Shown here piece by piece: positions 5,441 to 64,000 of a DNA stretch of 64,000 nucleotides. The stretch comes from a virus (lineage: Duplodnaviria; Caudoviricetes): positions 1 through 64,000 of the IMG/VR virus record IMGVR_UViG_2675903061_000001. The stretch is one strand, 5' to 3'. Both the position numbers and the translations under genes were made by a program. Numbering within the stretch: position 1 is the first letter of the stretch; each line of letters opens with the position of its first letter. The notes under the pieces were generated by a model. The model had not been told where the DNA came from. It ran no database searches and was given only the letters and a program-made list of their open reading frames with translations.

Positions 5441-5592
5441 TGCATCCTCCTCGTGAGATGTGGTGATGCACCGCCCCGGCGCCTGTTCCTGGCAGGGAGA
5501 GCGCCGGGGCGGCACGGTGCCCGTGCCGGACTTGGCACGGGAGCTGAAGGGCCGCCCGCCCGCGCCCCAGTGCAGCGGGCGGACGGCCCGGT

Positions 5593-5832: not shown

Positions 5833-6239
5833 GACGCGGCCGGCCCGGGCCCGGGGCTGACGGACTCCGTGGCGCCCCGGTGTGCGTCGAACAGCACGCG
5901 GGCGACGGGGCAGCCGGGTCCGTCGGTGGTGCCGCGGCAGGGGTCGCAGCGCAGGGTGTGGTCCATCAGCGCGGCCCACAGCCCGGCCCGGTCCAGGTAC
6001 CGGGCCGCGTCCTCGGGGCAGGTGTAGACGGTCCAGCCCGGCCCGCTGTTCTGATGCACGCTGCCGACCGCGATCGGGGTGTCGGTCATCTCCTTGCAGT
6101 GCGCGCACATCCGGCGGCCGGGAACCACGGGACGGGCGGGGTCGTGGCCCTCGGGGCCGTCACCGGCGGCAGCATCCGCGAGGAGTGCGCGCCGGGCGGC
6201 CTGGCCGGGTGACCGGCCGGGAAGAGATCGGGGAGACAT
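5829..6239 (-). CDS. Cys-rich hypothetical protein
   Basis: CAHC...VHQNSGPGWTVYTC, CDPC motifs; start uncertain. Confidence 0.6.
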   Translation of the reverse strand: MSPRSLPGRSPGQAARRALLADAAAGDGPEGHDPARPVVPGRRMCAHCKEMTDTPIAVGSVHQNSGPGWTVYTCPEDAARYLDRAGLWAALMDHTLRCDPCRGTTDGPGCPVARVLFDAHRGATESVSPGPGPAAS

Positions 6240-6374
6240 GGGGACGCTCCAGTGATGGGACGTGTACGGTCCGTCTCCACCGACCGTATGGGCGGCGCGA
6301 GCCACGTCTCAATGGCCAGCCGATAGCAGTCTGACCAGACCTCACGCCGAAGTGCTACAACGCCTGTTCGCGGC

Positions 6375-7772: not shown

Positions 7773-8411
7773 TCATGCGCTCTTCAACCCCTCTCGCTCG
7801 CCACTCTCGGCCCGAGAACTCCGCTGGTCAGGGCCGCTCTCGGTGGCCTGGGAGGGGCAACTCTCGCCCGGGGGAGGGGAGGCGTTGAGCAGCTGCTCGA
7901 CGGCCGCCCGTCGGACGCCGGACCGGCCCGCCACACCGGCCACCGTCAGGGACCGCTCCACAGGCACGCCGTAGTGCGCCAGGGCGGCGCGCAGCTCGGG
8001 GTCCGACAGGTGCGCGAGGGCGGGCCGATCACGCAGCCGCGCGTACAGCGGTCTCAGGTGGATGCCGTTGGCCTGGCCGATCTCGGCGAGCAGCCACCGC
8101 AGCAGCACCCGCCGGCGGGCGGCGCAGGGCACGGTCTCGGCGCGCTCCTGGCCGTCGTCCTGCGGCCAGGCTCCGGCGCGCCAGCACGCCGCCGCGTACA
8201 GGGTGGTGGCCGGCCACATCAGGGCGGGGGCGTAGTGCGCGGTGGCCAGCGCTGCCCACGCCAGGCCCAGCACGGCGGGTGAGCGGACCAGGCCGGGCGG
8301 TACCCGGTGGCCGGGCAGCCGCCCGGGCGCGGCCCAGTCCCCCAGGGCGGCCCACAGCTCGGCGTGCCCGTCCGCCAGCCGGTCCGCGGCCCGGCGGTGC
8401 CAGGCGGTCAC
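7773..8411 (-). CDS. Membrane protein with C-terminal winged-HTH-like domain (transfer/spread operon)
   Basis: Two hydrophobic helices, then GIHLRPLY...LRAALAHYGVPV...GRSGVRRAAV. Confidence 0.6.
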   Translation of the reverse strand: MTAWHRRAADRLADGHAELWAALGDWAAPGRLPGHRVPPGLVRSPAVLGLAWAALATAHYAPALMWPATTLYAAACWRAGAWPQDDGQERAETVPCAARRRVLLRWLLAEIGQANGIHLRPLYARLRDRPALAHLSDPELRAALAHYGVPVERSLTVAGVAGRSGVRRAAVEQLLNASPPPGESCPSQATESGPDQRSSRAESGEREGLKSA

Positions 8412-8908
8412 AGCAGGCCCGCGATCAGGTCGCCGGGGATGTTCACGGCCGGGGCCAGCACCACCGCGGCCCATCCGGCGATCCCGCCGGACAGCCCCAG
8501 GCAGATGCCGGTGATGATGCCGGCCGGGACGCGCCGCCCGCGCAGCTTCCCCGAGAACTTCCAGATGCCGGCCAGCACGACCGTGGCGAGGAGGACCAGG
8601 ACGTGGCCGCCGGGGGTGAGGGTGAGCGGGGAGGAGCGGGTGACGTCCGGCGCGGTGCCCCCGACGCCGTACTCAAGGGCCGCCGCCCCGGCGGTGTTGC
8701 CGCCCCACAGGGCGACTCCGGCGACGGCGCCGAGCAGGCCGCCGGTGGACAGCACGATCAGGATGCCGTAGCAGGCGGACAGCAGGTAGGGGGCGATCGC
8801 GGCGGGCTTGTGCTTGTCGCGCATCCACCAGGCCGTCAGGGTCCAGGCCAGGATGCACAGTCCGATGGTGACGCCGCCGAGGCCGACGGCGCGGGTGGTG
8901 AAGTCCAT
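8408..8908 (-). CDS. Multi-pass membrane protein (Spd-like)
   Basis: 166 aa, 4-5 hydrophobic segments, coupled operon. Confidence 0.75.
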   Translation of the reverse strand: MDFTTRAVGLGGVTIGLCILAWTLTAWWMRDKHKPAAIAPYLLSACYGILIVLSTGGLLGAVAGVALWGGNTAGAAALEYGVGGTAPDVTRSSPLTLTPGGHVLVLLATVVLAGIWKFSGKLRGRRVPAGIITGICLGLSGGIAGWAAVVLAPAVNIPGDLIAGLL

Positions 8909-8920
8909 GAGGGTGCTGCC

Positions 8921-9067
8921 TTAAGGGAGTACGGCCGCGATACCGGCGGCGCAGAGCAGGATGAAGACGGTCGTGGCGAGGACGGGGGCGACGGCGGTGC
9001 GCTCCACGGCGGCCAGGCCCAGCAGCCCGGCCGCTGCGGTCAGCGCCCACCCGATGGCGGGCCACAC
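8921..9067 (-). CDS. Small two-TM protein (not in ORF track)
   Basis: MWPAIGWALTAAAGLLGLAAVERTAVAPVLATTVFILLCAAGIAAVLP* fills the gap between operon genes. Confidence 0.65.
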   Translation of the reverse strand: MWPAIGWALTAAAGLLGLAAVERTAVAPVLATTVFILLCAAGIAAVLP

Positions 9068-9070
9068 GGG

Positions 9071-9888
9071 CTACCGCCCGGCGAGCACGGCGCGACGGAC
9101 CCGCCGGCCGTAGGAGTCCGAGGCGCCCAGGCGCGCACCGATGGCGGTTCCGGTCAGTTCCGGCTCCTCGGCGAGCCAGTTCCGGGCGCGCTCGACGTGG
9201 GCGCGGAAGCGGGTGTTCTCGCTCGGCTCGGACTCGATATCGGCGGCCCCGGAACCCGGCGCGGTTCCGCCGGTTCCGGACGTGGTTCCGGACGCGGTTC
9301 CGCCGGTTCCGGACGTGGTTCCGCACCGGTTCCGGCCGGAACCGGCGGGCGGGAAACGGCCTGGCCGAGGGCGGTTCCGCCGAAGGCCGGAGGCAGTTCC
9401 GGCAGGGGCGAGAACTCGCCCAGCACCGGCGCCTGGGCGCGCTCCAGCCGCACCGCCGGAGCCCCGGCCGGGGGCACCACCGGCAGCAGCCGCGCACCGG
9501 GCGGAACCACCGGAACCGCCACGGGTTCCGCCGGTTCCGACACCGGCCGCCCGCCGGTTCCGGCCGGAACCTCCCGCAGGGCGTGGACCCGCCACAGCAC
9601 CAGCGGAGCGATCGCCGAGACGGCAGTCACCAGGTGCCAGGTGACCGGGATCAGCCCGGCCGCCACCAGGTGCGCCGCCGCGTTCACGCCGATCATCGCC
9701 AGCACCACCGCGAACACATCCCGGTGGGCGCGCAGCGCGCGGACGGCGTAGATGTCCAGCGCCGCCGGCACCCCGGCCGCCACGATGGGACCGAACCCGC
9801 ACGCACGGGCGAGCTGGTACTCCGCCGACGCCGTCACCACGATCGCCGCACCGAGAGCGGCCCAGCCCAGCCAGTCACGGCCCTTCAC
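9071..9888 (-). pseudogene. DUF2637/Spd-like membrane protein with C-terminal HTH, frameshifted near 9250
   Basis: TM N-terminus (TASAEYQLARACGF...) in one frame; HTH-like tail (ARNWLAEEPELTGTAIGARLGASDSYGRRV) in another. Confidence 0.65.
9250..9575. repeat. Array of GGTTCCG/CGGAACC motifs in both orientations inside the Spd-like gene
   Basis: >12 copies; includes a ~33-bp tandem duplication at ~9260-9323. Confidence 0.8.
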
Positions 9889-10232
9889 CGCTCCTCCCCG
9901 GCCTGCTGGTCGAACAGGTAGCTGCCGTGGTGGATGCAGACGGGCACGCCGTCCACTTCCGTCTCGGCGGTCAGGCTCCGGTACGGCAGCCGGCCGTCGG
10001 TGACGGACTCCTCCACCGCGGCGCCGAGGAGCGCCGCCCAGGCGTGCACGTTGTCGTCGTCGGCGGCGTGGATGTCCAGCACGGTGCAATTGCGGACGGC
10101 GTCCCGGAAGGGCCCCATCGCGTAGACGGGCATGTCGGGGTGTTCGGCGATCAGGCGCCGGGCGAGGGTGCCGATGCGGAACAGCTCCACCTCGGCGGCC
10201 AGCAGGCCGGCCAGCGGGTCGCGCTCGCTCAT
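9885..10232 (-). CDS. Hypothetical protein
   Basis: 115 aa, coupled to neighbours. Confidence 0.65.
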   Translation of the reverse strand: MSERDPLAGLLAAEVELFRIGTLARRLIAEHPDMPVYAMGPFRDAVRNCTVLDIHAADDDNVHAWAALLGAAVEESVTDGRLPYRSLTAETEVDGVPVCIHHGSYLFDQQAGEER

Positions 10233-10495
10233 CGGCCCTCACCGACCCAGACGGAGGGCGGCAGCTCCAGGGCGGCCCGCAGCGCGGCCGTGGCGTCCTG
10301 GTCCCGGCCCCCGGGCCCGGTGGTCAGCCGGACGTCGCACAGCTCGGCGAACAGCCGGGCGGCGTGCGGCACGCACCCGTCCACCTCGGTGCCTCCGGCG
10401 TCCACCACCGTCACGGCGTCCGGGACGCCCAGGCACGGGGTGGGGTCACTCTCGTGCGCTGCCGAGCAGCGCTCGGGCATGGCAAGATCAGCCAT
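10229..10495 (-). CDS. Hypothetical protein, first gene of Spd-like operon
   Basis: RBS AAGGAG; CSAAHESDPTPC motif. Confidence 0.65.
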   Translation of the reverse strand: MADLAMPERCSAAHESDPTPCLGVPDAVTVVDAGGTEVDGCVPHAARLFAELCDVRLTTGPGGRDQDATAALRAALELPPSVWVGEGR

Positions 10496-10600
10496 AGCCG
10501 TCTCTCCTTGCTGTGATCAGGGAGGTTCGGTCAGGCCCCGGCCGGTGGTGAGGTCACCGAGCCGGGGCCGTCGCGCGTCCGGCGCCGTGAGGTGGCGCCG

Positions 10601-10649
10601 GGTGGCACTCCACCACAGTAGCGCGCTGCCTAGACGGTGGCAATCCACC
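10601..10649. promoter_or_regulatory. Two GGTGG-N4-CCACC operators between divergent genes
   Basis: ggtggcactccacc 10601-10614 and ggtggcaatccacc 10636-10649. Confidence 0.65.
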
Positions 10650-53944: not shown

Positions 53945-54556
53945 ATGCAGGTTACGGAGCGTGCGGGTTGCCGGAGGTGCGGAGGTCCGCTGCCGGTGGC
54001 CGGGCGCGGTCCGGTGCCGGTGTTCTGCTCGGGGGCGTGCCGTCAGGCGGCGTACCGGGAGTGGAAAGCGGCTGAGGCGCTGCCGCAGGAGTTGACCGCG
54101 CGGCGCCGGTGGGTGCGGCGGGACGAGAGCAAGCGTCCGGTGCGTGCGGACAACGGGCGGCCGGCGTCGGTGACGAATCCGTTCGACCGCACGACGTTCC
54201 CGAAGGCGTCCCGCTCGCGGCACGGTGTCGGGCTGGGGTTCGTGCTGGACGCGGGTGACGGTCTGGTGTGTGTGGACCTGGACCATGCCCTCGGCACCGA
54301 CGGGCGGCCGCTGCCGTGGGCGCGGGAGATCCTGGACCGCTGCCCGCCGACGTTCGTTGAGGTGTCGCCGTCAGGGACGGGCCTGCACATCTGGGGGCGT
54401 GGCCGTGTGCGGCAGGGGCGGCGTATCCGCCGCGCGGACGGGGCGGGGATCGAGGTGTACGGGGACGGACGCTATATCGCGGTCGGGCGCCGGTTCGGTC
54501 GGGCGCCGCTGCGCGTGGCCGACCTGACGGAACTGGTGGCCGAGCTGACGGAGTGA
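53945..54556 (+). CDS. Stand-alone primase-polymerase (AEP) domain with N-terminal Zn finger
   Basis: CRRC..FCSGAC; GFVL, VDLDH, EVSPSGTGLHIW, IEVY. Confidence 0.8.
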   Translation: MQVTERAGCRRCGGPLPVAGRGPVPVFCSGACRQAAYREWKAAEALPQELTARRRWVRRDESKRPVRADNGRPASVTNPFDRTTFPKASRSRHGVGLGFVLDAGDGLVCVDLDHALGTDGRPLPWAREILDRCPPTFVEVSPSGTGLHIWGRGRVRQGRRIRRADGAGIEVYGDGRYIAVGRRFGRAPLRVADLTELVAELTE

Positions 54557-54707
54557 GGCTTCCGGCGGGTGCTGCCCGTCGGGTTGTTGATTGAGGAGGG
54601 CCGCCCACGGCGGCCCTTTGTCGTGTAGGCGCCCGCCGTTGATCCCGGCGGGTAGGAAGCCCCGGTGGTCTCCAGGCACCGGGGCTTCCGCATTCCCTGG
54701 AGGCTCC

Positions 54708-55463
54708 ATGTCCTGGAAGTGCAGAAATGACAGACGCTTCACCACGCTGCGGCACTACGCCGTGGTCTCCCTCGAGGGTGACGTCCCCAAGGTCTTGGGA
54801 TGCGTCGAGTGCGACTGGGGAGACCTTGTGGACGGAGGCCTGGAGGAAGACACAACCCCGGGGGAAGCTCTGCCCCGGCATCGGCCAGACCGATGCACTG
54901 CTCCTACTCAGTATGGCGCCCGGTGCCAGGCTCAGGCGTGGTCGAACGGCAGATGCCACCGCCATGACCGCGATTTCTGGGAGAGGGCATACAGGGGTTT
55001 CCGGTCTCCATGGAGCGCAATCTCGATGCCGGAGGCGTATCGCGAGGTATTCATCCGGGCAATCAGGGATGCCGGGCTCGTCGCTGACGAGCAGCAGGTG
55101 ACCCGAGAGACTTTTGAGTCGGCGAGGAGCCGCCGTCACGGTTCGGTGGTCTACTTCGTGGAGCGCGAGGGGTTCATCAAGATCGGCACAACTAGGGATC
55201 TCCGGGGGCGGTTGGCGGCATTGGAGCAGGGCGGCGTGCTGATGCCCGACGGCGTGCCGCCGGGGCCGGTCACACTGCTCGCCACCACCCTGGGAGACCG
55301 GGACGTGGAATCTGGCTATCACACCCGCTTCCGTCGTCAACGCGTGAAAGGCGAGTGGTTTCGCCCCAGCAAGGCGCTGCGCCACCTCATCGAAGACCTC
55401 CAGCGGGCTGAGCAGCAAGGGCGCCCAGACGTACTGGACGAGGCATTGGCTGCGATGGCATAG
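54708..55463 (+). CDS. GIY-YIG / T5orf172-like nuclease domain protein (moron)
   Basis: VVYFVE...IKIGTT...RLAAL...H..F...R.KGEWF; lower GC. Confidence 0.75.
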   Translation: MSWKCRNDRRFTTLRHYAVVSLEGDVPKVLGCVECDWGDLVDGGLEEDTTPGEALPRHRPDRCTAPTQYGARCQAQAWSNGRCHRHDRDFWERAYRGFRSPWSAISMPEAYREVFIRAIRDAGLVADEQQVTRETFESARSRRHGSVVYFVEREGFIKIGTTRDLRGRLAALEQGGVLMPDGVPPGPVTLLATTLGDRDVESGYHTRFRRQRVKGEWFRPSKALRHLIEDLQRAEQQGRPDVLDEALAAMA

Positions 55464-55476
55464 GGGGTGAGTGGCT

Positions 55477-55914
55477 ATGGCCGGGTTCGGTCCCCCGCCG
55501 TCGGAGAACAAGCGGCGGCGGAACGCGGACACCTTCGAAGGCTTCGAGACCACCGTCCCCACCGACAGCGGCGAGGAACTGCGCGGCCCCGAGCTGCCGC
55601 ACGCGGCGCTGTACGGGCCGCAGACCATCGCCTGGTACGACACCTGGCGCCGCTCCCCCCAGTCCGCGGCGTTCCTGCCCACGGACTGGCAGCGGCTGCT
55701 CATGCTCGCCCCGCTGGTGGACGCCTACTTCCTCGAACCCAGCACGAAGCTGCTGGCGGAGATCCGGCTGAACGAGGGCCTCCTCGGGGCGACGCACACC
55801 GACCGGCTGCGGGCCCGTATCAAGGTGGAGGCGCCGAAGCCGAAACCCGCGGCCCCGCCGGCCGGGGTCGCTGACCTGACGTCGCGCCGTCGTCGGCTGA
55901 CCGATGCCTCGTGA
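55477..55914 (+). CDS. terS: Terminase small subunit
   Basis: WRRSPQ..TDW, AEIRL.E..LGAT..DRLR; overlaps terL. Confidence 0.85.
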   Translation: MAGFGPPPSENKRRRNADTFEGFETTVPTDSGEELRGPELPHAALYGPQTIAWYDTWRRSPQSAAFLPTDWQRLLMLAPLVDAYFLEPSTKLLAEIRLNEGLLGATHTDRLRARIKVEAPKPKPAAPPAGVADLTSRRRRLTDAS

Positions 55915-57625
55915 GCTGGTCCGGCACCCGGACCACTCGCGGCGCCGGTCGCTGGGGGTGGCGCTGGCGTTCATCGAGTGGTTCTGCGTGCACGGCCCCG
56001 GTGATGTGCAGGGCGTGCCGCTGCACCCGCGGCACGGCGGGGAGTGCCTTCCGCTGGACGACGAGTTCGCCGGGCTGATCCTGGACTGCTACGCGCTGGA
56101 CGAGACAGGGCGCCGGCTGTACGACACGGTGGCGATTTCCCGGGCGAAGGGCCGCGCGAAGTCGGAGCTGGCCGGGTTCGTGTCGCTGGCGGAGGCGTTC
56201 GGCCCGGTGCGGTTCTGCGGGTGGGCCGAGGGCGGCGAGCAGTACGAGTGGCGGGACTTTGTCTACGAGTACGAGCCCGGGGAGCCGATGGGGCGGCCGG
56301 TGACGTATCCGTTCATCCGGTGCCTGGCCACGGAGGAGTCGCAGAGCGGGAACACCTACGACAACATCCTGTTCAACCTGGAGCACGGCCCTCTGGCGGA
56401 GGATCTGCCGTCGGGCACGGCCGGCGTGACGCGGATCTTCCTCCCCGGCGGCGGGGAGGTGCGCCCCTCGACGGCGGCTGCGGCCTCGCGGGACGGCGGG
56501 AAGGAGACCCTCGCGGTCTTCGACGAGCCGCACCTGTACACCCAGCCGGAGCTGCGGCAGATGTACCGCACGGTGGACCGGAACCTGCGCAAGCGGAAGG
56601 CTGCGGAGCCGTGGGCGCTGCTCACCTCGACGATGTACCAGCCGGGCGAGAACAGTGTGCTGGAGAAGTTGCATGAGCGGGCGAAGCTGATCGCTGAGGG
56701 CAAGACCCGCGGCCGGCGGCTGATGCTGGACCACCGCGAGGCGCCGGCGGATGTGGACCTGACCGACCGGGAGCAGATGCGGGCCGCGCTGCGGGAGGTG
56801 TACGGGCCGTTCGCAGGCGCGCTGGACCTGGACGGGATCATCGAGTCGGAGTTCTGGAACATCGAGAAGGACCCCGAGGAGTCCCGGCGGTACTTCTTCA
56901 ACCAGCCCACCGCCGCGAGGGATGCGTGGACGACGCACCCGGCGTGGGCGGCGTGCACGGACGTGGAGCTGGTGGTGGCGGACGGCGCGCCGATGGTGAT
57001 GTTCTTCGACGGCTCGAAGTCTGATGACGCCACGGGCCTGGTCGGGTGCGATGTGGAGACCGGGCACGTCATGACGCTGGCGTGCTGGGAGAAGCCACGC
57101 GGCCAGGACGGCGAGGGCTGGGAGGTGGACCGGACGGATGTGGACCGGGTCGTGCGGCAGGTCTTCGCCGAGCGGAACGTGGTCGCCTTCTTCGGCGATG
57201 TGAAGGAGTTCGAGTCCTACATCGACACCTGGGGCCAGGACTTCGGCGAACGTCTGCTGATCCACGCCACGGCCGGCCGCTACGCGCACCCGGTGGCGTG
57301 GGACATGCGGGGCCGGGTGCGGGAGTTCACGGCGGCGTGCGAGCGGATGGAAGTGGACATCCGGGAGCGGGACGTCACTCACGACGGGGACAGCCGGTTG
57401 CAGCGGCATGTGCTGAACGCCCGCAGGCGGCCGAACCGGTACGGGGTGAGCGTCGCGAAGGAGTCCCGGGACTCCCCGCACAAGATCGACCTGGCGGTGT
57501 GCGCGATCGGAGCGCGGATGGCGCGGCGGATGCTGCTCGCCTCGCCGGAATGGGCCAAGCATCAGGCGGCGCAGACGAAGAAGCGCCGGGGTGAGCGGGG
57601 CACGAGGGCATTCGGCTGGAGGTGA
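55904..57625 (+). CDS. terL: Terminase large subunit
   Basis: SRAKGRAKS, VFDEPH, FDGSKSDDATGL, KIDLAV. Confidence 0.93.
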   Translation: MPRELVRHPDHSRRRSLGVALAFIEWFCVHGPGDVQGVPLHPRHGGECLPLDDEFAGLILDCYALDETGRRLYDTVAISRAKGRAKSELAGFVSLAEAFGPVRFCGWAEGGEQYEWRDFVYEYEPGEPMGRPVTYPFIRCLATEESQSGNTYDNILFNLEHGPLAEDLPSGTAGVTRIFLPGGGEVRPSTAAAASRDGGKETLAVFDEPHLYTQPELRQMYRTVDRNLRKRKAAEPWALLTSTMYQPGENSVLEKLHERAKLIAEGKTRGRRLMLDHREAPADVDLTDREQMRAALREVYGPFAGALDLDGIIESEFWNIEKDPEESRRYFFNQPTAARDAWTTHPAWAACTDVELVVADGAPMVMFFDGSKSDDATGLVGCDVETGHVMTLACWEKPRGQDGEGWEVDRTDVDRVVRQVFAERNVVAFFGDVKEFESYIDTWGQDFGERLLIHATAGRYAHPVAWDMRGRVREFTAACERMEVDIRERDVTHDGDSRLQRHVLNARRRPNRYGVSVAKESRDSPHKIDLAVCAIGARMARRMLLASPEWAKHQAAQTKKRRGERGTRAFGWR

Positions 57626-57628
57626 CCC

Positions 57629-59032
57629 GTGCTGCTGGAGACGAAGAAGGAGGTTGAGGAGGCCGCGGGCCGTCTGACCGAGGCGCATCAGGCGGAGAAG
57701 CGGCGCCTGGACCCGATCCACGCGGCGGTGCGGGGCGAGGACAACGCGCTGTACGTGCCGCAGAAGGCGACCGAGGAGTACAGGCGGATTGTTGAGCAGT
57801 CCCGGTTCAATGTGCTGCCGCTGGTGATCACGCAGCTTGCGCAGGCGCTGTTCGTGGACGGCTACCTCACCGGGGACGGGAAGCGGTCGCCGGTGTGGGA
57901 GGCGGTGTGGCAGCCGAACCGGATGGACGCCAGGCAGGGCGGCCTGTACCGGTCGGCGATCGAGTACGGGGCGTCGTATGCGCTGGGCCTGCCCGGGGAC
58001 CCGGTGCCGGTGATCACGCCGCTGTCGCCGCGGCGGTGCACCGCGCTGTACGAGGACCCGGTCAATGACGAGTGGCCGGAGCTGGCGCTGGTTTTCGGGC
58101 CGAAGGTCAAGGTCGGGGAGGGGTGGGCGCGCAAGGCGCGTCTGTTTGACGAGCAGCAGGCGCACCCGATGCTGGTGGGCGAGTCGGGAGCGCGGCCGGC
58201 GCCGGGTGAGAAGCCGAAGAAGCACGGGCTGGGTGTGGTGCCGCTGGTGCGGTATCTGGACAGCCTGGAGGACTTGGACGACGGGCCGTGCGGCAAGGTG
58301 GAGCCGCTGGTCCCGGTGCAGCGGCAGCTCAACCAGACGACGTACTCCCTGTTGATGGCGCAGCACTACGGGGCGTTCCGGCAGCGGTGGGTCACGGGGA
58401 TGCTGGTGCAGGAGGACGCCGACGGCAATCCGCGTGAGCCGTTCGATGTGGGCGTGGACCGGATGCTGCACGCGGAGGAGGCGACGGCGAAGTTCGGCGA
58501 CTTCGCCGAGACCAGCCTGGACGGCTACCTGAAGTCGCGTGAGGCGGCGCTGCTGTTCATCGCCTCGGTGGCGCAGATCCCCCCGCACAACCTGATCATC
58601 GGATCCGGCATCTCCAACATCTCGGCGGAGGCGCTGGCCGCCCTGGAGGCAGGCCACCGTCAGGATGTGGCTGAGCACCAGCAGTCGTTCGGCGAGTCGA
58701 CCGAGCAGCTGATGCGGCTGTGCGGGCGGGCGATGGGCGATGAGGCGGCGTGGAAGGACACCTCCGGGCAGGTGATCTGGCGCGACACGACGCCGAGGTC
58801 GCTGGCGCAGGTCGCGGACGCCTGGGGCAAGGTGGCGCAGATGCTAGGTGTGCCGCCGCGGGCGTTGTGGTCGCGTTTGCCGGGGGTGACGCAGCAGGAC
58901 GTGCGGGCGTGGGAGCGGATGGCGGACGAGCAGGACGCGCTGCTGAACTTGGAGCAGATGTTCCGCGAGGACGCCGAAGGCTCGCCGGCCGGTGAGCCGG
59001 AGCCGGAGCCCGCGCCGTCGGCGGCCGGCTGA
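57629..59032 (+). CDS. Portal protein (SPP1 gp6-like)
   Basis: WQPNRMDARQ, AFRQRWVTG, NISAEAL, WRDTTPRS; position after terL. Confidence 0.9.
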   Translation: MLLETKKEVEEAAGRLTEAHQAEKRRLDPIHAAVRGEDNALYVPQKATEEYRRIVEQSRFNVLPLVITQLAQALFVDGYLTGDGKRSPVWEAVWQPNRMDARQGGLYRSAIEYGASYALGLPGDPVPVITPLSPRRCTALYEDPVNDEWPELALVFGPKVKVGEGWARKARLFDEQQAHPMLVGESGARPAPGEKPKKHGLGVVPLVRYLDSLEDLDDGPCGKVEPLVPVQRQLNQTTYSLLMAQHYGAFRQRWVTGMLVQEDADGNPREPFDVGVDRMLHAEEATAKFGDFAETSLDGYLKSREAALLFIASVAQIPPHNLIIGSGISNISAEALAALEAGHRQDVAEHQQSFGESTEQLMRLCGRAMGDEAAWKDTSGQVIWRDTTPRSLAQVADAWGKVAQMLGVPPRALWSRLPGVTQQDVRAWERMADEQDALLNLEQMFREDAEGSPAGEPEPEPAPSAAG

Positions 59033-59754
59033 TGCCGTCGCCGGAGGCGCAGGCCCTGACCCGCACCTATCGGCAGCGGGTGCTGGACATTGCGGGGCTG
59101 ATCGGCCGCAGGCTGCGGACGGTGGCGCTGGCCGCCGACACCGACGACATTGACAGCTGGTGGGACCGGGTGGCGCCGCGGGTGCAGCAGGAGATCCTGA
59201 CCGGGGCGTCGGCGCTGGCGGTGCTGGCGCGCAGATATCTGGTGGCGCACGCAGAGATCGAGGGCGTCGTGCTGGAGCCGGTGGTGGTGGATCCGCCGGG
59301 CCGGCCGCAGATCGCCGCCTCGACGCGGGTGACAGGGCCGGTGGCGTTCAAGACCCACATGTCGGCGACAGGGTCGGCGCCGGGTTCGGTGCGGACGATG
59401 GCGTCGCAACTGTCGGGCTCGGGGCAGCGGCTCGCGATGGAGGGCGCCCGGGAGACGGTGATGCGCACCTTCGCCGAGCGCGATGAGATCGCCGGGTGGC
59501 GCCGTGTCGCCTCGGGGTCGCCGTGCGCGTTCTGCCTGATGCTGGTGGGCCGCGGGGCGGTGTACTCGAAGAGGACTGCGGATTTCCAGTCGCATGACCG
59601 GTGCGCGTGCACGCCGGAGCCGCTGTACCGGCGGGAGGACGAGCCCGCTGAGGTGCGCAGGTTGCAGCGGCAGTGGCGGGAGGCCACGGCCGGGACATCG
59701 GGCAACGCGGCGATCGCCGCGTGGCGTGCCTACGTGGCGGACCAGCGGCAGTAG
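59032..59754 (+). CDS. MuF-like minor head / capsid maturation protein
   Basis: WRRVASGSPCAFCLML..RG..Y, HDRCAC. Confidence 0.8.
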   Translation: MPSPEAQALTRTYRQRVLDIAGLIGRRLRTVALAADTDDIDSWWDRVAPRVQQEILTGASALAVLARRYLVAHAEIEGVVLEPVVVDPPGRPQIAASTRVTGPVAFKTHMSATGSAPGSVRTMASQLSGSGQRLAMEGARETVMRTFAERDEIAGWRRVASGSPCAFCLMLVGRGAVYSKRTADFQSHDRCACTPEPLYRREDEPAEVRRLQRQWREATAGTSGNAAIAAWRAYVADQRQ

Positions 59755-59788
59755 TTGAGACTTCCCCGCCCAGACCGGGGCGGGGTGC

Positions 59789-59850
59789 GTGGACGGCCAG
59801 CGCACAAGTGGCCGGTGCGGTGTGGACGGCCAGCGCCATGAAGTGGCCGG
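59789..59850 (+). repeat. Tandem hairpin repeat upstream of scaffold gene
   Basis: GTGGACGGCCAGCGC-N2/4-AAGTGGCCGG x2. Confidence 0.7.
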
Positions 59851-59871
59851 GAGTCAGGAGAAACGGAACGG

Positions 59872-60468
59872 ATGAGTACACCCACCGAGACGCCGCCTGC
59901 GCCGGAAGGGCAGCAGGGCGGCGGCAGCCCGCCGGAGCCTGCGCCGCAGCCGGAGCCTCCGAAGCCGGGGCCGCCTCCGGGGCAGACGTACACACAGGCC
60001 GACCTGGACCGGATCGTGCGGGAGCGCCTGGCCCGGGAGCAGAAGAAGGCATCCGACCGGTACGGCGACTACGACGACCTGAAGGCCAAGGCGGCCCGGC
60101 TGGCCGAGCTGGAAGAGGCCCAGCAGTCCGAGCAGGAGAAGCTCGCCAAGCGCCTGGAGAAGGCAGAGAAGGACCGGAAGGCCGCCGAGGAACGCATCGC
60201 GCAGATGGAGATCGAGGCGCTGCGTTCCCGGATCGCGGCGGAGAAGGGCCTGACTCCGATACAGGCTGCGCGGCTGCGCGGCACCACGGAGGAGGAGATC
60301 ACCGCGGACGCGGACGATCTCCTCGCCGCTTTCAAGCCGCCGGAGCCTCCCGCTTCGGCGCCACAGGGCCGGCCGCTGGAGTCGCTTTCTCCGGGGTCGA
60401 TCCCGGCGGCCGGTGACACGCCGACCGACATGAACGAGTGGATGCGCGCCAGGTCCCGCAATGGGTAG
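59872..60468 (+). CDS. Capsid scaffolding protein
   Basis: TQADLDRIVRERLARE, DYDDLKAKA, RLRGTTEEEI.ADA. Confidence 0.88.
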   Translation: MSTPTETPPAPEGQQGGGSPPEPAPQPEPPKPGPPPGQTYTQADLDRIVRERLAREQKKASDRYGDYDDLKAKAARLAELEEAQQSEQEKLAKRLEKAEKDRKAAEERIAQMEIEALRSRIAAEKGLTPIQAARLRGTTEEEITADADDLLAAFKPPEPPASAPQGRPLESLSPGSIPAAGDTPTDMNEWMRARSRNG

Positions 60469-60574
60469 CCGCGGCCGCAGCCACACCTACCTGTAGTCGG
60501 CCGGGCGCTGTCCCGGCCTCCGTCCCATGACCCCGCCACTGAGCGGGGTTTTCGCATGTTTGGAGGTTGGGGCT

Positions 60575-61549
60575 GTGGCCCTCACCAGTGACTCTGACCT
60601 GCTTCCCATCGAATGGGCGCAGGACGTCATCAAGGAGATGAGCAAGTCCTCGGCAGTGCTGGGCCTGTCGCGGCGCCGCACGATGACCACGCGGCAGCAG
60701 CGGCTTCCCGCGACCGCAGTGCTGGCCGACGCCTACTGGGTCGGCTCCGGGGACAACGACTTCACCGACCTGAAGCAGCAGACCAACGCCGAGTGGAACG
60801 GCGTGAACCTGATCGTGGAGGAGCTCGCCTGCCTGGTCGGCATCCCCCACGCCTACGAGCAGGACAACTCCTTCCCCGTGTGGGAGGAGGTGCGTCCGCA
60901 GATCGTGGAGGCGATGGGCAAGCGTCTGGACGCGGCCGCCCTGTTCGGGGTGGGCAAGCCTTCCACTTGGCCGGCGGCGATCCTGCCGTCGATCGTGGCG
61001 GCCGGGCAGACGGTGGAGCGCGGCACCGAGGACGACCTGGCGGCGGACATCGCCGAGTCGGCGCGGGTGCTGAAGCAGCAGGGGTTCCGCACCACCGGGT
61101 GGGCGGCCGAGCCCGGGTTCCACTGGGAACTGGTGGGGCTGCGGTCGCTGGACGGCGCGCCGATCTACCAGCCGAACCTGTCGGGGCCGATCAATCAGGG
61201 CCTGTACGGGCTGCCGCTGGTGGAGGTGGAGAACGGGGCGTGGCTCACCACGACTGACGCCTCGGTGATCCACGGGGACTGGTCCAAGTCGATCGTCGGT
61301 ATCCGGCAGGACATCACCTTCACTCGGCACGACTCCGGCGTGATCGGCGACTCCTCCGGCAACATCGTGTTCAACGCGATGCAGCAGGACGCGACGATCT
61401 GGCGTGCGGTGTTCCGGGTGGCGTGGGCTCGCGCGAACCCGGCGACCCGGACCGGTGACCAGCCGGGCGAGTCCGGTGACAACTCCCCGTCCTCGGAATC
61501 CTCGCCGGCGAAGTTCCCGTGGGCGGCCGTGGTGCCGGCCGGCTCGTGA
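60575..61549 (+). CDS. Major capsid protein (HK97 fold)
   Basis: LLPIEW..DVIK, AYWVG, RLDAAALFG, GDWSK...GIRQDITF. Confidence 0.9.
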   Translation: MALTSDSDLLPIEWAQDVIKEMSKSSAVLGLSRRRTMTTRQQRLPATAVLADAYWVGSGDNDFTDLKQQTNAEWNGVNLIVEELACLVGIPHAYEQDNSFPVWEEVRPQIVEAMGKRLDAAALFGVGKPSTWPAAILPSIVAAGQTVERGTEDDLAADIAESARVLKQQGFRTTGWAAEPGFHWELVGLRSLDGAPIYQPNLSGPINQGLYGLPLVEVENGAWLTTTDASVIHGDWSKSIVGIRQDITFTRHDSGVIGDSSGNIVFNAMQQDATIWRAVFRVAWARANPATRTGDQPGESGDNSPSSESSPAKFPWAAVVPAGS

Positions 61550-62229
61550 CGACGCATCTGGTGGTGGGCGCAGGAGAGGTGGGCACTGCGGTGCACGCGG
61601 TGCTGTCCTGCGCCCACGACGCCCTCATCCGAGACATCGAGCCGGTGCCTGTGGGGGCGGAGGTGCTGCACGTGTGCTTCCCCTGGTCGGAGGATTTCGC
61701 TGCGCAGGTCAAGGCGTATGCCGACGAGCACGGTGCCGGCCTGGTGGTGGTGCATTCCACCGTGCCGCCCGGGACGTGCGATCCGCACGGGTGGGTGCAT
61801 TCCCCGGTTCGGGGGCGGCATCCGCACCTGGCGCCGGCCCTGCGCGCGTTCATCAAGCACTTCGGCGGCCACCACGCCGCCGAGGCCGCGCAGGCCTGGG
61901 AGGACGCGGGCGTCCGCACCCGCGTGCACACGCTGGCCGCCGACACCGAGGCGGGGAAATTGTGGGAGCTGGTCCAGTTCGGTGTGCAGGTGCGGGTGGA
62001 GAAAGCCATCCATGCGTGGTGTGCCGAGAGAGGGCTGGACGCCGATGTGGTGTACCGGCAGATGGCCGAGACCTACAACGACGGCTACGCCGACCTCGGC
62101 GAGCACCGGTTTCTGCGGCCGGTGCTGGCCCACATGCCCGGCGATATCGGGGGGCACTGCGTGCGGCCCATGGCCGCGCTGCTCGATCACCCCCTGGCCG
62201 AGATGGTGACCCGTGGCCTCGATTCCTGA
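61546..62229 (+). CDS. Truncated UDP-glucose/GDP-mannose dehydrogenase-family enzyme
   Basis: Rossmann VVGAGEVG, HSTVPPGT, TEAGKL, catalytic-type GGHC. Confidence 0.75.
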   Translation: MTTHLVVGAGEVGTAVHAVLSCAHDALIRDIEPVPVGAEVLHVCFPWSEDFAAQVKAYADEHGAGLVVVHSTVPPGTCDPHGWVHSPVRGRHPHLAPALRAFIKHFGGHHAAEAAQAWEDAGVRTRVHTLAADTEAGKLWELVQFGVQVRVEKAIHAWCAERGLDADVVYRQMAETYNDGYADLGEHRFLRPVLAHMPGDIGGHCVRPMAALLDHPLAEMVTRGLDS

Positions 62230-62881
62230 GGTGCTTCACCGTATCTGGCTGGATGACCCGATGCCGCCGGAGTTCGAGGAGTACGGGCGGCGCTGGGCCG
62301 AGCTGCACCCGGGGTGGGAGATCCGGGAGTGGCGCAGCTCGGCCGAGCTTCCGGTGCTGGCCACCCAGGACCTGTTCGACGCCGCGCGCGAGGTGTGTCC
62401 GCGGGACTGGAAGCGGTTCCAGGCGGACCTGCTGCGCCTGGAGCTGCTGGACCAGTATGGCGGGGTGTATGTGGACACCGATGTGCAGCCGCTGCGGCCG
62501 CTCGGGCCGCTGCTGGCGCAGGTCGGAGACCAGGCGTTCGTGCCGTGGTCGCCGAACCGGGGCGCGGGCGGGCGCAGGCTGCTGACGCAGTGCGTGCTCG
62601 GTGCGCCGCCGGGGCACCGGTGGATCCGGGCGTGCATCGCCGGCATCCCCGACGCGGTCAGCCGGTACCGGGGGCGTCCGTTGGCGCAGATGGTCGGCCC
62701 GCACCACGTCACCCGCGTGTGGGAGCAGAACCCGCAGGGCGTGACGGTGCTGGACGAGGAGCTGTTCGGGCCGCAGAGCAACCGCGCGCGGGACCGCGGG
62801 CAGGCCCCCGACCTGTCGCGGTCCTACGCGTGGCACCGGTGGGCGAACACCCGGGACCGGCGGCGGGGAGGTGTGCGATGA
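62213..62881 (+). CDS. GT32/DXD-motif glycosyltransferase
   Basis: IPEVLHRIW, ADLLRLELL..YGGVYVDTDV, GP, YAWHRW. Confidence 0.9.
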   Translation: MASIPEVLHRIWLDDPMPPEFEEYGRRWAELHPGWEIREWRSSAELPVLATQDLFDAAREVCPRDWKRFQADLLRLELLDQYGGVYVDTDVQPLRPLGPLLAQVGDQAFVPWSPNRGAGGRRLLTQCVLGAPPGHRWIRACIAGIPDAVSRYRGRPLAQMVGPHHVTRVWEQNPQGVTVLDEELFGPQSNRARDRGQAPDLSRSYAWHRWANTRDRRRGGVR

Positions 62882-63828
62882 CGTCGTATCAGCCTGTGTG
62901 GCGCGGCGGGCAGGCCGTCGCCGAAGGGGAGCGGGAGTGCGCGGACCGGTGGGAGCCGATCCGCGAAGTCCTCGCCGCCGTGGAGCAGCCGTTCACGGTG
63001 CTGGACCTGGGCGCGGCGCAGGGCTACTTCTCGGCCCGGGCGGCGGAGGAGTTCGGCTGCCGCGTCTCCGCGATCGACTCCGACCGGGCGGTTGCGCAGG
63101 CGGCCAGTTCGCTGGTCACGCCGTATGTGCGGCGCGTCGACGCCTCCGGCCTGCGGCACATGGCCCGGCACGATGTGGTGCTGGCGCTGTCGGTGCTGCA
63201 CCACTTCGGCGACTGGCGTGCGGTGCTGCGGCAGGTGCGTGCCTGCCGGCGCTGGGCGGTGGTGGAGGTGCCGCACCCGGGCGAGCGGTGGCTGCGCTCG
63301 GCCGCCGCCCGGCACCAGCTGGCCGCGATTCATGACGCGGTCGCCGCGGTGGCCGAGCGCAGGCTGGGCGAGTTCGAGCGCACCGGCCGGGACGGCTCGC
63401 GGCACATGCGGCCGATGTACCTGCTGCGCGGCACCGTCCGCACGGTGGAGGGCGAGGTGTTCGGCGGCTCGGGCACCTGCTCGCGCAAGCTGCGCCCGCA
63501 CCTCCACGCCGCGGGCCTGGACCGGGAGCTGGGCTACCAGCCGTTCCCGGGCAGCCTGAACCTGCGCTGCAAGGAGCCGCCCGTCCTGGGGGCGCCGGCG
63601 GTGAACTGGCCCGGCCGCGTCGGCGGCAAGAGCCGGCCGTACTGGTTCTGGGAGGCGTGGGTCGGGAAGCTCGCGGTCCACGCCATGGACCCGGCCGGCC
63701 GCGGACACGGCCCCGACTGCATTGAGGTCGTCGCCCCCGTCCGTCTGCGGGACCGGCTGTCCCTGGCCGACGGCGACACCGTCCGCCTGGACGTCGAGAC
63801 CACCGAGAAGGGAGCGGACCATGGTTGA
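62878..63828 (+). CDS. Class I SAM methyltransferase fused to CTP-dependent riboflavin kinase-like (DUF120) domain
   Basis: VLDLGAAQGYFS, LSVLHH; C-terminal GEVFGGSG, LGYQPFPGSLN, IEVVAPVRLRDRLSLADGDTV. Confidence 0.8.
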   Translation: MTSYQPVWRGGQAVAEGERECADRWEPIREVLAAVEQPFTVLDLGAAQGYFSARAAEEFGCRVSAIDSDRAVAQAASSLVTPYVRRVDASGLRHMARHDVVLALSVLHHFGDWRAVLRQVRACRRWAVVEVPHPGERWLRSAAARHQLAAIHDAVAAVAERRLGEFERTGRDGSRHMRPMYLLRGTVRTVEGEVFGGSGTCSRKLRPHLHAAGLDRELGYQPFPGSLNLRCKEPPVLGAPAVNWPGRVGGKSRPYWFWEAWVGKLAVHAMDPAGRGHGPDCIEVVAPVRLRDRLSLADGDTVRLDVETTEKGADHG

Positions 63829-64000
63829 CCGCTGGTCCCTGTCCCCGGCCGAGCGGGCCGCGCGGCGGGAGCGGGTGCGCCGCCGCGCCGCCGCCCGCGA
63901 CGCGCGGGTGCCGGAGGGCAAGACCTACACCCTACGCAAGCACCGCAAGTCCTTTCAGATGTGGGCGTGGCCGGGGAAGATCGCGGCCTGCCTGGAAGCC
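63821..64000 (+). CDS. Next coupled gene (partial; function not determinable)
   Basis: MVDRWSLSPAERAARRERV...KIAACLEA, open to window end, overlaps previous stop. Confidence 0.6.
   Translation, partial: MVDRWSLSPAERAARRERVRRRAAARDARVPEGKTYTLRKHRKSFQMWAWPGKIAACLEA

Follow-up and report, generated by a model that had tools for sequence, protein, structure and literature searches.

What would a prophage make of a protein in which a methyltransferase is joined to a kinase domain whose fold, to our knowledge, is known only from archaeal riboflavin kinases? The gene lies in the 64,000-nucleotide stretch of DNA analysed here (the window), which belongs to a prophage carried by a bacterial genome of 6.48 Mb, and its methyltransferase half resembles that of WbdD, the enzyme that caps the polymannose O antigen of Escherichia coli O9a with methyl phosphate. 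We know of methyl-phosphate capping only from a few Gram-negative O antigens, made by one enzyme type, WbdD. We propose, at about an even chance of being right, that the fusion protein is a bifunctional glycan kinase/phosphate-methyltransferase of a prophage virion-glycosylation cassette.

The open reading frame of the fusion protein (P0001) has a GC3 of 0.90-1.00 in frame along its entire length (Table 1). Its ATG shares the letters ATGA at 62878-62881 with the stop of the upstream glycosyltransferase gene, and its final 8 nt overlap the ATG (63821) of the gene that follows. The AF2 model of the protein is of high confidence (pLDDT 92.9, pTM 0.91), with residues 312-316 disordered. All motifs quoted in the sequence-only reading are in the translation (YQ, RECADR, PFTVLDLGAAQGYFS, LSVLHH, G.V.GG.G, LGYQPFPGSLN, IEVVAP..LR, and DGD.V.), and its assignment of two domains, a WbdD-like methyltransferase and a RibK fold, is borne out by Pfam, by profile comparison with the PDB, and by structure alignment.

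Table 1. Features of the capsid-to-fusion region, in window coordinates
Feature	Position	Strand	Remarks
Major capsid protein	60527..61549	+	phrog_10, 3.8e-32
Short Rossmann protein, GxGxxG motif	61519..62229	+	Start uncertain (GTG at 61519 or later)
DXD glycosyltransferase	62213..62881	+	PF04488, 45.6 bits
Fusion gene, 316 aa	62878..63828	+	WbdD-type SAM methyltransferase + RibK-like kinase domain
N-domain, aa 1-185	62878..63432	+	Class I methyltransferase, WbdD type
C-domain, aa 186-316	63433..63825	+	Cradle-loop-barrel kinase domain, PF01982
FkbM-family methyltransferase, start only	63821..64000	+	Runs past window end; full gene L004:1823-2545, 240 aa

The genes run in the order capsid, Rossmann protein, DXD glycosyltransferase, fusion, FkbM methyltransferase, phrog_854 glucosyltransferase, and head-tail adaptor, followed by genes for Hc1, the tail terminator, and the major tail protein. 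Those of the cassette form part of the late structural operon, and their starts and stops overlap. The setting is one of glycan synthesis, with a glycosyltransferase on either side of the fusion, downstream of the capsid gene and upstream of that for the head-tail adaptor. The FkbM gene product matches PF05050 (1.6e-11) and TIGR01444 (74.3 bits, cut-off 37.7). The Rossmann protein scored below threshold against the N-domains of nucleotide-sugar dehydrogenases (13.7 bits for a cut-off of 27 and 15.4 bits for a cut-off of 189.8), and a homologue of it was found in one of 25 viral fusion loci (L031). The capsid protein carries a Ser-rich stretch near its C terminus that could be a glycan acceptor.

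These 25 full-length fusion loci are on IMG/VR viral contigs, and they contain a DXD glycosyltransferase no more than about 1.2 kb away in 23 cases, a phrog_854 glycosyltransferase in 17, an FkbM methyltransferase in 9, and an upstream portal gene in 11; in a low-GC locus (L039), the fusion comes after GT4-type, GT2/Anp1, and methyltransferase genes. The fusion is found in 51 protein clusters at 90% identity, and its ESM Atlas cluster has 51 members, 91% of them viral. By megablast, none of 50,697 phage records matched window positions 54000-64000, and a search of genome contigs returned only two Halobacillus loci that match the N-domain alone. When the proteins of 401 genomes of the same class were searched, the window's own genome was the only one with the fusion, and the 9 remaining hits were generic methyltransferase matches (E about 1e-6, aa 24-140). 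Among the 50 BFVD Foldseek matches listed, all were to the methyltransferase domain and none was a RibK-like viral model. The claim that such a fusion is undescribed in phages stands insofar as a literature search found no paper on a fusion of a riboflavin-kinase fold with a methyltransferase, and none whose title or abstract concerns a WbdD encoded by a phage, but the 25 contigs show that it is not confined to this prophage. Of the papers that mention DUF120, none has the fusion as its subject to judge by its title, and one names DUF120 in a list of genes from 5 cyanophage genomes; a single sentence of a preprint proposes that an Asgard virus has a WbdD-like methyltransferase.

The same phospho-methyl chemistry might instead be directed at a host cell-envelope glycopolymer, leading to lysogenic conversion, superinfection exclusion, or a lytic change of receptor. 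The element is a prophage, and WbdD itself acts on a lipid-linked polysaccharide, as stated in a passage of PMC3482155, both of which are in line with such a target. We nevertheless regard it as decidedly improbable, because the genes are embedded in the late structural operon, because this position recurs in the viral contigs (those with a portal gene upstream) and in mycobacteriophage LittleE, and because the cassette showed no gene for membrane anchoring, a flippase, or a transporter.

The N-domain is a methyltransferase of the WbdD type. Pfam places Methyltransf_23 over aa 30-135 (36.2 bits), and WbdD was the best methyltransferase match of the single sequence against the PDB (phmmer, E of 0.007). 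With a profile of the 28-sequence family, the match to WbdD rose to an E value of 6e-10, with profile positions 4-185 aligned to WbdD 16-210, and the next methyltransferase followed at 2.4e-5. WbdD was likewise the nearest solved structure to the AF2 model (VIA-align Z of 19.3, rmsd of 2.3 Å over 179 residues, 24% identity), ahead of the next non-WbdD methyltransferase at a Z of 15.6. The motif order that had been given for WbdD (YQ, RDCNQR, VLDLGCAQGFFS, LSVFHH) proved to be the order in the aligned WbdD chains.

Fusion residues Y4, R19, C21, R24, H108, H109, and R178 correspond to WbdD Y16, R31, C33, R36, H132, H133, and R203. Excerpts of PMC3482155 state that the Y16F, H132A, H133A, and R203A substitutions in WbdD abolish methylation and leave phosphorylation in place, that phosphate at position 3 of mannobiose is the sole target of the methyltransferase, and that R31, C33, N34, Q35, R36, F194, D195, and H197 line a sulphate pocket. 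R19, R24, H108, H109, and R178 are invariant in all 28 family members, as are D43 and G45 of motif I, while Y4 and C21 are conserved in at least 90%; among 13 diverse relatives of the N-domain, all keep the Tyr, both Arg, the first His, and the last Arg, and 12 keep the equivalent of H133. Judged by these aligned positions, the N-domain retains the residues by which mutagenesis defines the phosphate-methyltransferase of WbdD. In the pocket, R31, C33, and R36 are the only three of the eight residues with clear counterparts; in place of F194 and D195 the fusion has F166 and E167, and N34, Q35, and H197 have given way to A22, D23, and T169.

These lost pocket residues would suit a different reading, in which the two domains tailor the glycan separately: the methyltransferase would O-methylate a sugar hydroxyl, and the RibK-like domain would phosphorylate elsewhere or only bind a nucleotide or nucleotide-sugar, so that no methyl phosphate would be made. 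The WbdD of serotype O8 reportedly methylates a hydroxyl with no prior action of a kinase, and the FkbM gene gives the cassette a second methyltransferase, which makes methylated sugars plausible. Such separate tailoring is at odds with the invariance or near-invariance of the seven WbdD equivalents, and we consider it unlikely.

The N-domain signature alone is no proof of a glycan substrate, since methyltransferase-only relatives (about 180 aa) with the same signature residues occur in non-glycan, IbrA/ParB-like contexts. They sit between PAPS-reductase/DUF3440 and ParB_N genes (L046 and L041), a gene pair that we take to be linked to DNA-related functions, and the scanned ORFs flanking them (3 in L046, 4 in L041) include no glycosyltransferase. 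In a Halobacillus relative of the N-domain, the fused region gave no Pfam match and carries a motif that we presume to be ParB-like. Such relatives lend some weight to a non-glycan phosphate as the substrate, either on a phosphoprotein (capsid phospho-Ser/Thr) or at a nucleic acid terminus. For the fusion itself this seems to us very improbable in view of the glycosyltransferase neighbours in nearly all of its viral loci, of the fusion of the kinase clade to GT2, GT4, and DXD glycosyltransferases, and of the sugar-related neighbours of a viral relative, L049, all described here.

The C-domain matches PF01982 over aa 210-306 (Pfam, 45.5 bits, E of 8.9e-12, cut-off of 25). In the PDB, the single sequence found MJ0056 (phmmer, E of 9.4e-6), and the 28-sequence family profile found RibK/RbkR at 4e-15 to 7e-15. 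Whether this half aligns to the RibK fold had been named as a check, and it does so above the Pfam cut-off and in structure, with MJ0056 bound to CDP and FMN (2vbv) aligning to model residues 184-310 (VIA-align Z of 16.1, rmsd of 2.1 Å, 127/134 residues). In taRbkR, according to excerpts of PMC5397151, the CTP/Mg site consists of G102, G104, G106, T131-L132-N133, L202, and R203, with E195 as catalytic base, and the flavin contacts include Y109, Y115, and F165, of which Y115 is absolutely conserved in RibK/RbkR. Fusion residues G197, G199, S226-L227-N228, E283, L290, and R291 correspond to taRbkR G102, G104, T131-L132-N133, E195, L202, and R203. Across 76 methyltransferase-fused domains, a set that pools close relatives and whose counts are thus not independent, G102 is kept in 76, G104 in 74, N133 and E195 in 75 each, and R203 in 74, and T131 is Ser in 73 and Thr in 3. 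The conservation of these catalytic residues argues against a mere binding module, as separate tailoring would allow. One position of the phosphate loop departs from this pattern, G106 being replaced (by C, N, or H) in 76/76.

The acceptor pocket has been remodelled. In a control set of 28 RbkR-like domains, all three flavin-contact columns are aromatic in 28/28: the Y109 column holds Tyr in 26 and Phe in 2, the Y115 column Tyr in all 28, and the F165 column Phe in 15 and Tyr in 13. In the 76 fused domains, the first of these columns becomes mainly K (31), N (9), S (8), H (6), and F (5); the second becomes H (26), F (18), and Y (11); and the third becomes T (14), G (14), R (13), K (10), and S (7), so that its five most frequent residues, which account for 58/76 domains, include no aromatic one. 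P0001 has K204, H210, and S252 at the three positions. The equivalents of P185 and of Y190 (as H/Y) are retained, the latter at MAFFT column 277, which holds H/Y in archaeal domains. Other residues have become nearly invariant in fused as against RbkR-like domains, namely, Y255 (68/76 versus 0/28), W258 (73/76 versus 1/28), H268 (72/76 versus 7/28), and R275 (63/76 versus 4/28). By these columns, the C-domain keeps the predicted kinase machinery but not the flavin pocket.

A true riboflavin kinase, which would serve as an auxiliary metabolic gene for making FMN or, together with the methyltransferase, in a route to a methylated flavin, is what the PF01982 score, the fold, and the catalytic residues would lead one to expect, and some sources name the homologues "CTP-dependent riboflavin kinase." We reject this reading and find it barely credible: the domain scores far below the equivalog cut-offs (33.2 bits against 168 for the NCBIfam RibK equivalog NF040694, and 29.8 bits against 279 for PRK14165/NF010762), the flavin-contact columns have changed as described, and the cassette neighbours are all glycan enzymes, with no riboflavin gene among them. 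A genuine riboflavin-linked architecture, in which wHTH, RibK, and DHBP synthase domains follow one another, is seen in P0084 and differs from that of the fusion. The public name of the homologues is likely a mis-annotation.

The company kept by the C-domain points to glycans instead. When 20 multidomain relatives of the C-domain, together with L040, were scanned for partner domains, 5 of the 20 carried a glycosyltransferase (GT2 in P0072, P0092, and P0138, the last with a sub-threshold PF01982 score; GT4 in P0165; DXD in P0169), and 10 carried a methyltransferase, in reverse order in P0187; one (P0057) carried an extra FkbM domain. L040 combines a methyltransferase, two PF01982 domains, and a GT2 in one protein of 768 aa. 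In a FastTree of 196 short PF01982 domains, P0001 falls in a clade that has good support and comprises 49 fused and 2 stand-alone domains. A single clade of all fused kinase domains is not supported by this poorly resolved tree, in which the fusion label needs 11 changes and 92/193 inner branches are unresolved; only the core of 49 + 2 is supported.

The same methyltransferase clade is also found with other kinases. L049, a viral protein of 317 aa that matches WbdD in two stretches (E of 7.6e-11), joins the methyltransferase to a WbdD-type kinase loop and adjoins genes for a GDP-mannose 4,6-dehydratase and a GT8, and in 45/45 matching mycobacteriophage records, a small APH-like kinase neighbours the methyltransferase; in the mycobacteriophages examined in detail, the kinase gene directly precedes the methyltransferase gene, and glycosyltransferases flank the pair. 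This recurrent pairing with a kinase of one or another fold is a further point against separate tailoring. It also sustains part of the earlier idea that a RibK-like kinase "replaces" that of WbdD, although the word is too strong: L036 carries the fusion and also, directly upstream of an FkbM gene, a gene whose product is homologous to the small kinase of mycobacteriophages (39% identity, E of 7e-27), which means that the RibK-like domain is not simply a substitute for the small kinase. Strict exclusivity of the two is ruled out by this one locus of 25, and no small kinase was found at an E value below 0.1 in the retrieved flanks of the other 24 loci or in those of the window. For separate tailoring, the second kinase beside the FkbM gene of L036 is a favourable sign, as it suggests that kinases and methyltransferases are not paired one to one.

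For the proposed kinase/phosphate-methyltransferase, we envisage that the C-domain acts as an NTP-dependent kinase, with CTP expected by homology only, and phosphorylates a hydroxyl of the glycan built by the neighbouring glycosyltransferases, which would probably be carried by the capsid and perhaps by the tail-tube protein. The N-domain would then methylate the glycan phosphate with SAM to give a methyl-phosphate group. What is inferred in this scheme is the acceptor and the donor nucleotide, the sequence of the two steps, the product, and the virion as the target. The proposal draws on the N-domain fold and catalytic residues, the C-domain residues, the gene context, the domain fusions, the other kinase partners, and the viral cluster; we count against it L036, the methyltransferase-only relatives, the lost pocket residues, the G106 change, and the poorly resolved tree.

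A broader claim, which we hold tentatively and at somewhat less than an even chance, is that the viral PF01982 clade is a glycan kinase, that virions of phages of high-GC and some low-GC hosts bear methyl-phosphate O-glycans, and that the WbdD-type phosphate methyltransferase has independently recruited kinases of at least three unrelated kinds (WbdD-type protein-kinase-like, small APH-like, and RibK-like), to which a ParB-like module in the IbrA/ParB-linked relatives may add a fourth. If this is true, the two-step chemistry of WbdD also operates in phages of Gram-positive, high-GC hosts by way of a different kinase fold, which would be a clear case of non-orthologous recruitment, and the PF01982/RibK cradle-loop barrel gains its first function beyond riboflavin phosphorylation, with its first non-flavin substrate. 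It would also predict an addition of 94 Da on hexose on phage capsids, which is easily measured, and would bear on the shielding of virions from antibodies by glycans and on the design of phage therapy.

Among known systems, the closest is E. coli O9a WbdD (4azs/4ax8/4uw0), with which the fusion has in common the N-terminal YQ and C-terminal RPMY elements, the placement of the methyltransferase N-terminal to a kinase in one polypeptide, and a glycan-synthesis locus. The kinase of WbdD is eukaryotic-like, whereas that of the fusion is an unrelated cradle-loop barrel, and Pfam finds no Pkinase or APH match in the fusion. WbdD exceeds 550 aa, has a C-terminal coiled coil, and is encoded in an ABC-transporter O-antigen locus, whereas the fusion gene is part of a phage structural operon. 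The role of chain terminator put forward in the sequence-only reading is hypothetical, as the shorter fusion protein lacks a coiled coil and nothing was seen that would suggest coupling of the WbdA type or to an ABC transporter. L049 may be described as a viral "mini-WbdD" that resembles the fusion in its methyltransferase clade, in all signature residues, in its C-terminal kinase module, and in its glycan-enzyme neighbours, but its C terminus matches the catalytic loop of the WbdD kinase (residues 344-381 by chain index) and not PF01982. On the kinase side, MJ0056/RibK (2vbv) and Thermoplasma acidophilum RbkR (5trd/3cta) share with the fusion the fold, the Gly-rich phosphate loop, S/T-L-N, the catalytic Glu, and L-R; in contrast to them, the fusion has its flavin aromatics and G106 replaced, is joined to a methyltransferase, and is viral and set among glycosyltransferases.

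The mycobacteriophage cassettes, LittleE gp15-18 (cluster J) and DeadP gp101-103 and gp106 (cluster F), encode a methyltransferase homologous to the fusion (38-40% identity over aa 3-147; phrog_9361, 2.6e-29). In LittleE, as in the prophage, the cassette directly follows the major capsid gene, glycosyltransferases flank it, and a kinase gene adjoins the methyltransferase. The mycobacteriophage kinase differs in being a separate APH/protein-kinase-like protein of 167 aa (PF01636, 28.6 bits), the LittleE methyltransferase differs in being fused to a GT2, and the 45 mycobacteriophage records match P0001 only within aa 3-147 and thus give no match to the C-domain at an E value of 1e-5 or below. 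Passages in PMC11256854 and PMC13445384 cite Freeman et al. 2023 for virion glycosylation in Che8 and its relatives, on capsid or tail-tube proteins. The cassette described here shares with such actinobacteriophage virion-glycosylation cassettes the placement of glycosyltransferases amid structural genes.

The protein encoded by the fusion gene consists of two domains, and all of the motifs that the sequence-only reading had quoted occur in its 316-aa translation. Pfam placed class I methyltransferase families over residues 30-135 and PF01982 (CTP-dep_RFKase/DUF120) over residues 210-306 (45.5 bits, cut-off 25). When the PDB was searched with the single protein, the archaeal riboflavin kinase MJ0056 was matched at 9.4e-6 and the top methyltransferase was E. 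coli WbdD (0.007). A profile built from 28 full-length homologues gave 4e-15 to 7e-15 for the riboflavin kinases RbkR/MJ0056 and 6e-10 for WbdD, the latter over the whole methyltransferase domain (profile 4-185, WbdD 16-210) and four orders of magnitude better in E value than the second methyltransferase. An AlphaFold2 model built on the 28-homologue alignment (pLDDT 92.9, pTM 0.91) was compared by VIA-align, which put WbdD at the top (Z 19.3 with 2.3 A rmsd over 179 residues; second family 15.6) and aligned MJ0056 with bound CDP and FMN (2vbv) to model residues 184-310 (Z 16.1, rmsd 2.1 A, 127/134 residues); Foldseek agreed. The proposed fusion of a WbdD-like methyltransferase half to an archaeal RibK-fold half is thus confirmed.

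The window, which covers bases 2-64001 of a contig of 233,732 bp, comes from a bacterial genome of 6.48 Mb and about 72% GC, and at the right end of the window lies the late operon of a prophage. Between about 24 kb and 54 kb GC skew is negative; from 54 kb it is positive, a flip that fits the change from minus- to plus-strand genes where the late operon begins. Since the gene order runs from the capsid through the cassette to the head-tail adaptor, the fusion is the third of five sugar-related genes placed between capsid and connector genes, and start/stop overlaps flank it on both sides. The short Rossmann protein (227-236 aa, GxGxxG) resembles the N-domain of nucleotide-sugar dehydrogenases below threshold only and lacks the C-terminal half typical of those enzymes. 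Directly before its C terminus the capsid protein carries a Ser/Pro/acidic low-complexity run (61440-61549), which, by analogy with reports on mycobacteriophages, is a plausible candidate for an O-glycan acceptor.

Features of the late operon in and just beyond the window, and related genes at other loci
Sequence	Feature	Coordinates	Remarks
Window	Portal	57629-59032	phrog_104, 3.7e-105
Window	Head gene	59032-59754	
Window	Probable scaffold gene	59872-60468	
Window	Major capsid protein	60527-61549	phrog_10, 3.8e-32
Window	Short Rossmann protein	61519-62229	
Window	DXD glycosyltransferase	62213-62881	PF04488, 45.6 bits
Window	Fusion gene	62878-63828	+ strand
Past window edge, 1st	FkbM-family methyltransferase		Its ATG overlaps the last 8 nt of the fusion gene
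Past window edge, 2nd to 6th	phrog_854 glucosyltransferase, head-tail adaptor, Hc1 (head closure), tail terminator, major tail protein		
L005	Halobacillus relative	5248-6564	
L036	Small kinase homologue	10190-10645	
L040	Methyltransferase-PF01982-GT2 protein	7818-10124	768 aa
L041	Methyltransferase-only ORF	8004-8546	
L046	Methyltransferase-only ORF	7995-8543	
L049	'Mini-WbdD'	7995-8948	317 aa

A word-indexed protein search returned 53 proteins, 51 of which have a methyltransferase family together with PF01982 in precomputed Pfam annotation (296-515 aa, 39-100% identity); most homologues of the fusion are unnamed, and some are labelled 'CTP-dependent riboflavin kinase' or 'SAM-dependent methyltransferase'. 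The ESM Atlas cluster of the fusion comprises 51 members, of which 91% are viral. Of 401 same-class genomes, only the window's own contains the fusion. In IMG/VR, 34 loci were matched, 25 of them with a full-length fusion. At these 25, where the cassette proteins of the window served as tblastn queries to count neighbours, the DXD glycosyltransferase lies at most about 1.2 kb from the fusion, on either side, in 23, the phrog_854 glycosyltransferase is found at 17, the FkbM methyltransferase at 9, an upstream portal gene at 11, and a homologue of the Rossmann protein at one (L031). The two loci lacking the DXD gene are L039 (33% GC), in which GT4-type, GT2/Anp1 and methyltransferase genes precede the fusion, and L040 (57% GC), whose protein joins the methyltransferase to two tandem PF01982 domains (95.4 bits over two stretches) and a C-terminal GT2. 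By eye, both PF01982 copies of the L040 protein show the G-x-G, S/T-L-N, Glu and L-R motifs. None of 50,697 phage records matched beyond the N-domain, and literature searches yielded no description of the fusion; cyanophage PF01982 genes are listed without study in Table 2 of one paper (PMC3037559), and a WbdD-like methyltransferase of an Asgard virus is mentioned, without study, in one sentence of a preprint.

According to the description of RbkR in PMC5397151, its CTP site comprises G102, G104, G106, T131, L132, N133, L202 and R203 and its FMN site Y109, Y115, F165, P185, Y190 and E195; conservation is absolute for Y115 and E195, and E195 probably serves as the base. We gathered 196 PF01982-like domains, assigned their architecture by HMMs of both fusion halves, and compared 76 methyltransferase-fused with 28 wHTH-type (RbkR-like) domains in one MAFFT alignment, in which the residue counts pool close relatives and are non-independent. 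The 28 archaeal controls behaved as in the RbkR paper (Y115 Y in 28/28; Y109 Y26/F2; F165 F15/Y13). The fused domains keep G102 (76/76), G104 (74/76), E195 (75/76), L202/R203 (R74/K2) and P185 (71/76), and their T-L-N motif appears as S-L-N (S73/T3, L75, N75). Their flavin-contact columns are altered at Y109 (K31, N9, S8, H6, F5), Y115 (H26, F18, Y11) and F165 (T14, G14, R13, K10, S7), G106 is glycine in none of the 76, and four residues of the window protein are new: Y255 (68/76 vs 0/28), W258 (73/76 vs 1/28), H268 (72/76 vs 7/28) and R275 (63/76 vs 4/28). In spite of this pooling the pattern is clear, with the phosphotransfer machinery retained and the acceptor pocket rebuilt with Trp, Tyr, His and Arg, and we infer that Y255, W258, H268 and R275 may line a sugar site. 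Riboflavin kinase identity was rejected for the C-domain, given the changed flavin contacts and scores of 33.2 and 29.8 bits with the NCBI RibK equivalog models (cut-offs 168 and 279); it has the RibK kinase fold, probably with another substrate than riboflavin.

A search of 1.84 billion proteins with the C-domain gave 194 representatives at E<=0.001. Among 20 multidomain relatives scanned with Pfam, ten contain a methyltransferase (in reversed order in P0187, with an additional FkbM domain in P0057), one contains TPR repeats, four have PF01982 alone, and one, P0084, has a genuine riboflavin architecture (wHTH, RibK and DHBP synthase). Five are joined to a glycosyltransferase, namely GT2 in P0072, P0092 and P0138 (PF01982 sub-threshold there, 20.3 bits), GT4 in P0165 and the DXD family in P0169, and such fusions are Rosetta-stone evidence for what would be a glycan substrate. 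The stand-alone PF01982 proteins P0056, P0059, P0060 and P0063 (126-130 aa) are 42-56% identical to the window C-domain and nearer to it than any archaeal RibK (P0056, 56%); these may be split forms of the fusion.

Other kinases also accompany the methyltransferase. The 45 phage records that match the window protein are all mycobacteriophages, with the match confined to residues 3-147. Downstream of the LittleE capsid gene come genes for a glycosyltransferase, a kinase of 167 aa, a methyltransferase-GT2 fusion and a second glycosyltransferase; DeadP has the order kinase, methyltransferase, glycosyltransferase; this mycobacteriophage kinase is APH/protein-kinase-like (PF01636 28.6 bits, and PDB matches). 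The L049 'mini-WbdD' (41% GC) combines an N-half matching the WbdD methyltransferase with a short kinase module matching the catalytic loop of the WbdD kinase (two stretches, overall E 7.6e-11), and its gene lies between GDP-mannose 4,6-dehydratase (362 bits) and GT8 genes, adjoining the large terminase. Three kinds of kinase are thus associated with one methyltransferase clade, as RibK-like, APH-like and WbdD-type partners are all seen, and this diversity fits a coupled reaction in which phosphorylation precedes methylation. Replacement of one kinase by another, as originally proposed, is not strict, since locus L036 carries, besides the fusion and a DXD glycosyltransferase, a gene homologous to that for the small kinase of mycobacteriophages (39% identical to DeadP gp101, E 7e-27), with an FkbM gene directly downstream of it. 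RibK-like and small APH-like kinases can therefore coexist, and L036 suggests two separate kinase/methyltransferase pairs within one phage. The phylogeny of the short kinase domain was weakly resolved.

Eight IMG/VR loci (L041-L048) match the N-domain only. The translated ORFs of L041, L042, L044, L046 and L047 are methyltransferase-only proteins of 180-182 aa with the full WbdD signature, and L048 has one of 187 aa. In L041 and L046, the two whose neighbours were scanned, the gene follows a PAPS-reductase/DUF3440 (IbrA-like) gene; the next gene in L046 scores just below the ParB_N cut-off (25.8 vs 26.3 bits), and no glycosyltransferase was found in the flanking ORFs scanned (three in L046, four in L041). 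The Halobacillus relative has its methyltransferase fused to an N-terminal region with a GGQHR-type motif, which we take to be ParB-like; Pfam gave nothing in that region. The methyltransferase-only loci are a non-glycan context, in which a ParB-like module might, as pure speculation, supply the phosphate. As signature-bearing relatives occur in IbrA/ParB-like contexts, the signature by itself is no proof of a glycan acceptor. The main rival explanation, which we consider rather unlikely, is that the methyltransferase and kinase domains carry out independent tailoring.

The best-supported explanation, which we hold with moderate confidence, is that the fusion is a phage-encoded WbdD-like phospho-methyl glycan-tailoring enzyme with a RibK-fold kinase; it might terminate chains, use CTP as donor and act on the virion. 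For WbdD, PMC3482155 describes a methyltransferase whose only substrate is phosphate at position 3 of mannobiose, and in which Y16F, H132A, H133A and R203A abolish methylation and leave phosphorylation; its sulphate-filled pocket, unusual among methyltransferases, is formed by R31, C33, N34, Q35, R36, F194, D195 and H197. With WbdD, the 31P signal of the phospho-sugar reportedly moves upfield once SAM is added. With this numbering confirmed in the HMMER alignment ('YQ' Y16-Q17, 'RDCNQR' 31-36, 'HH' 132-133, R203 of 'RPMY'), WbdD Y16, R31, C33, R36, H132, H133 and R203 have as counterparts in the window protein Y4, R19, C21, R24, H108, H109 and R178. All 28 family members have R19, R24, H108, H109 and R178, at least 90% have Y4 and C21, and in the alignment of 13 remoter relatives all keep the tyrosine, both arginines of the motif, the first histidine and the last arginine, and 12 have the C33 and H133 equivalents. 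WbdD N34, Q35 and H197 are without conservation in the fusion family, and F194 and D195 are matched by F and E in the window protein. Because the equivalents of Y16, H132, H133 and R203 are kept and those of N34, Q35 and H197 are not, the N-domain bears the catalytic signature of a phosphate-directed methyltransferase, with a pocket only partly like that of WbdD.
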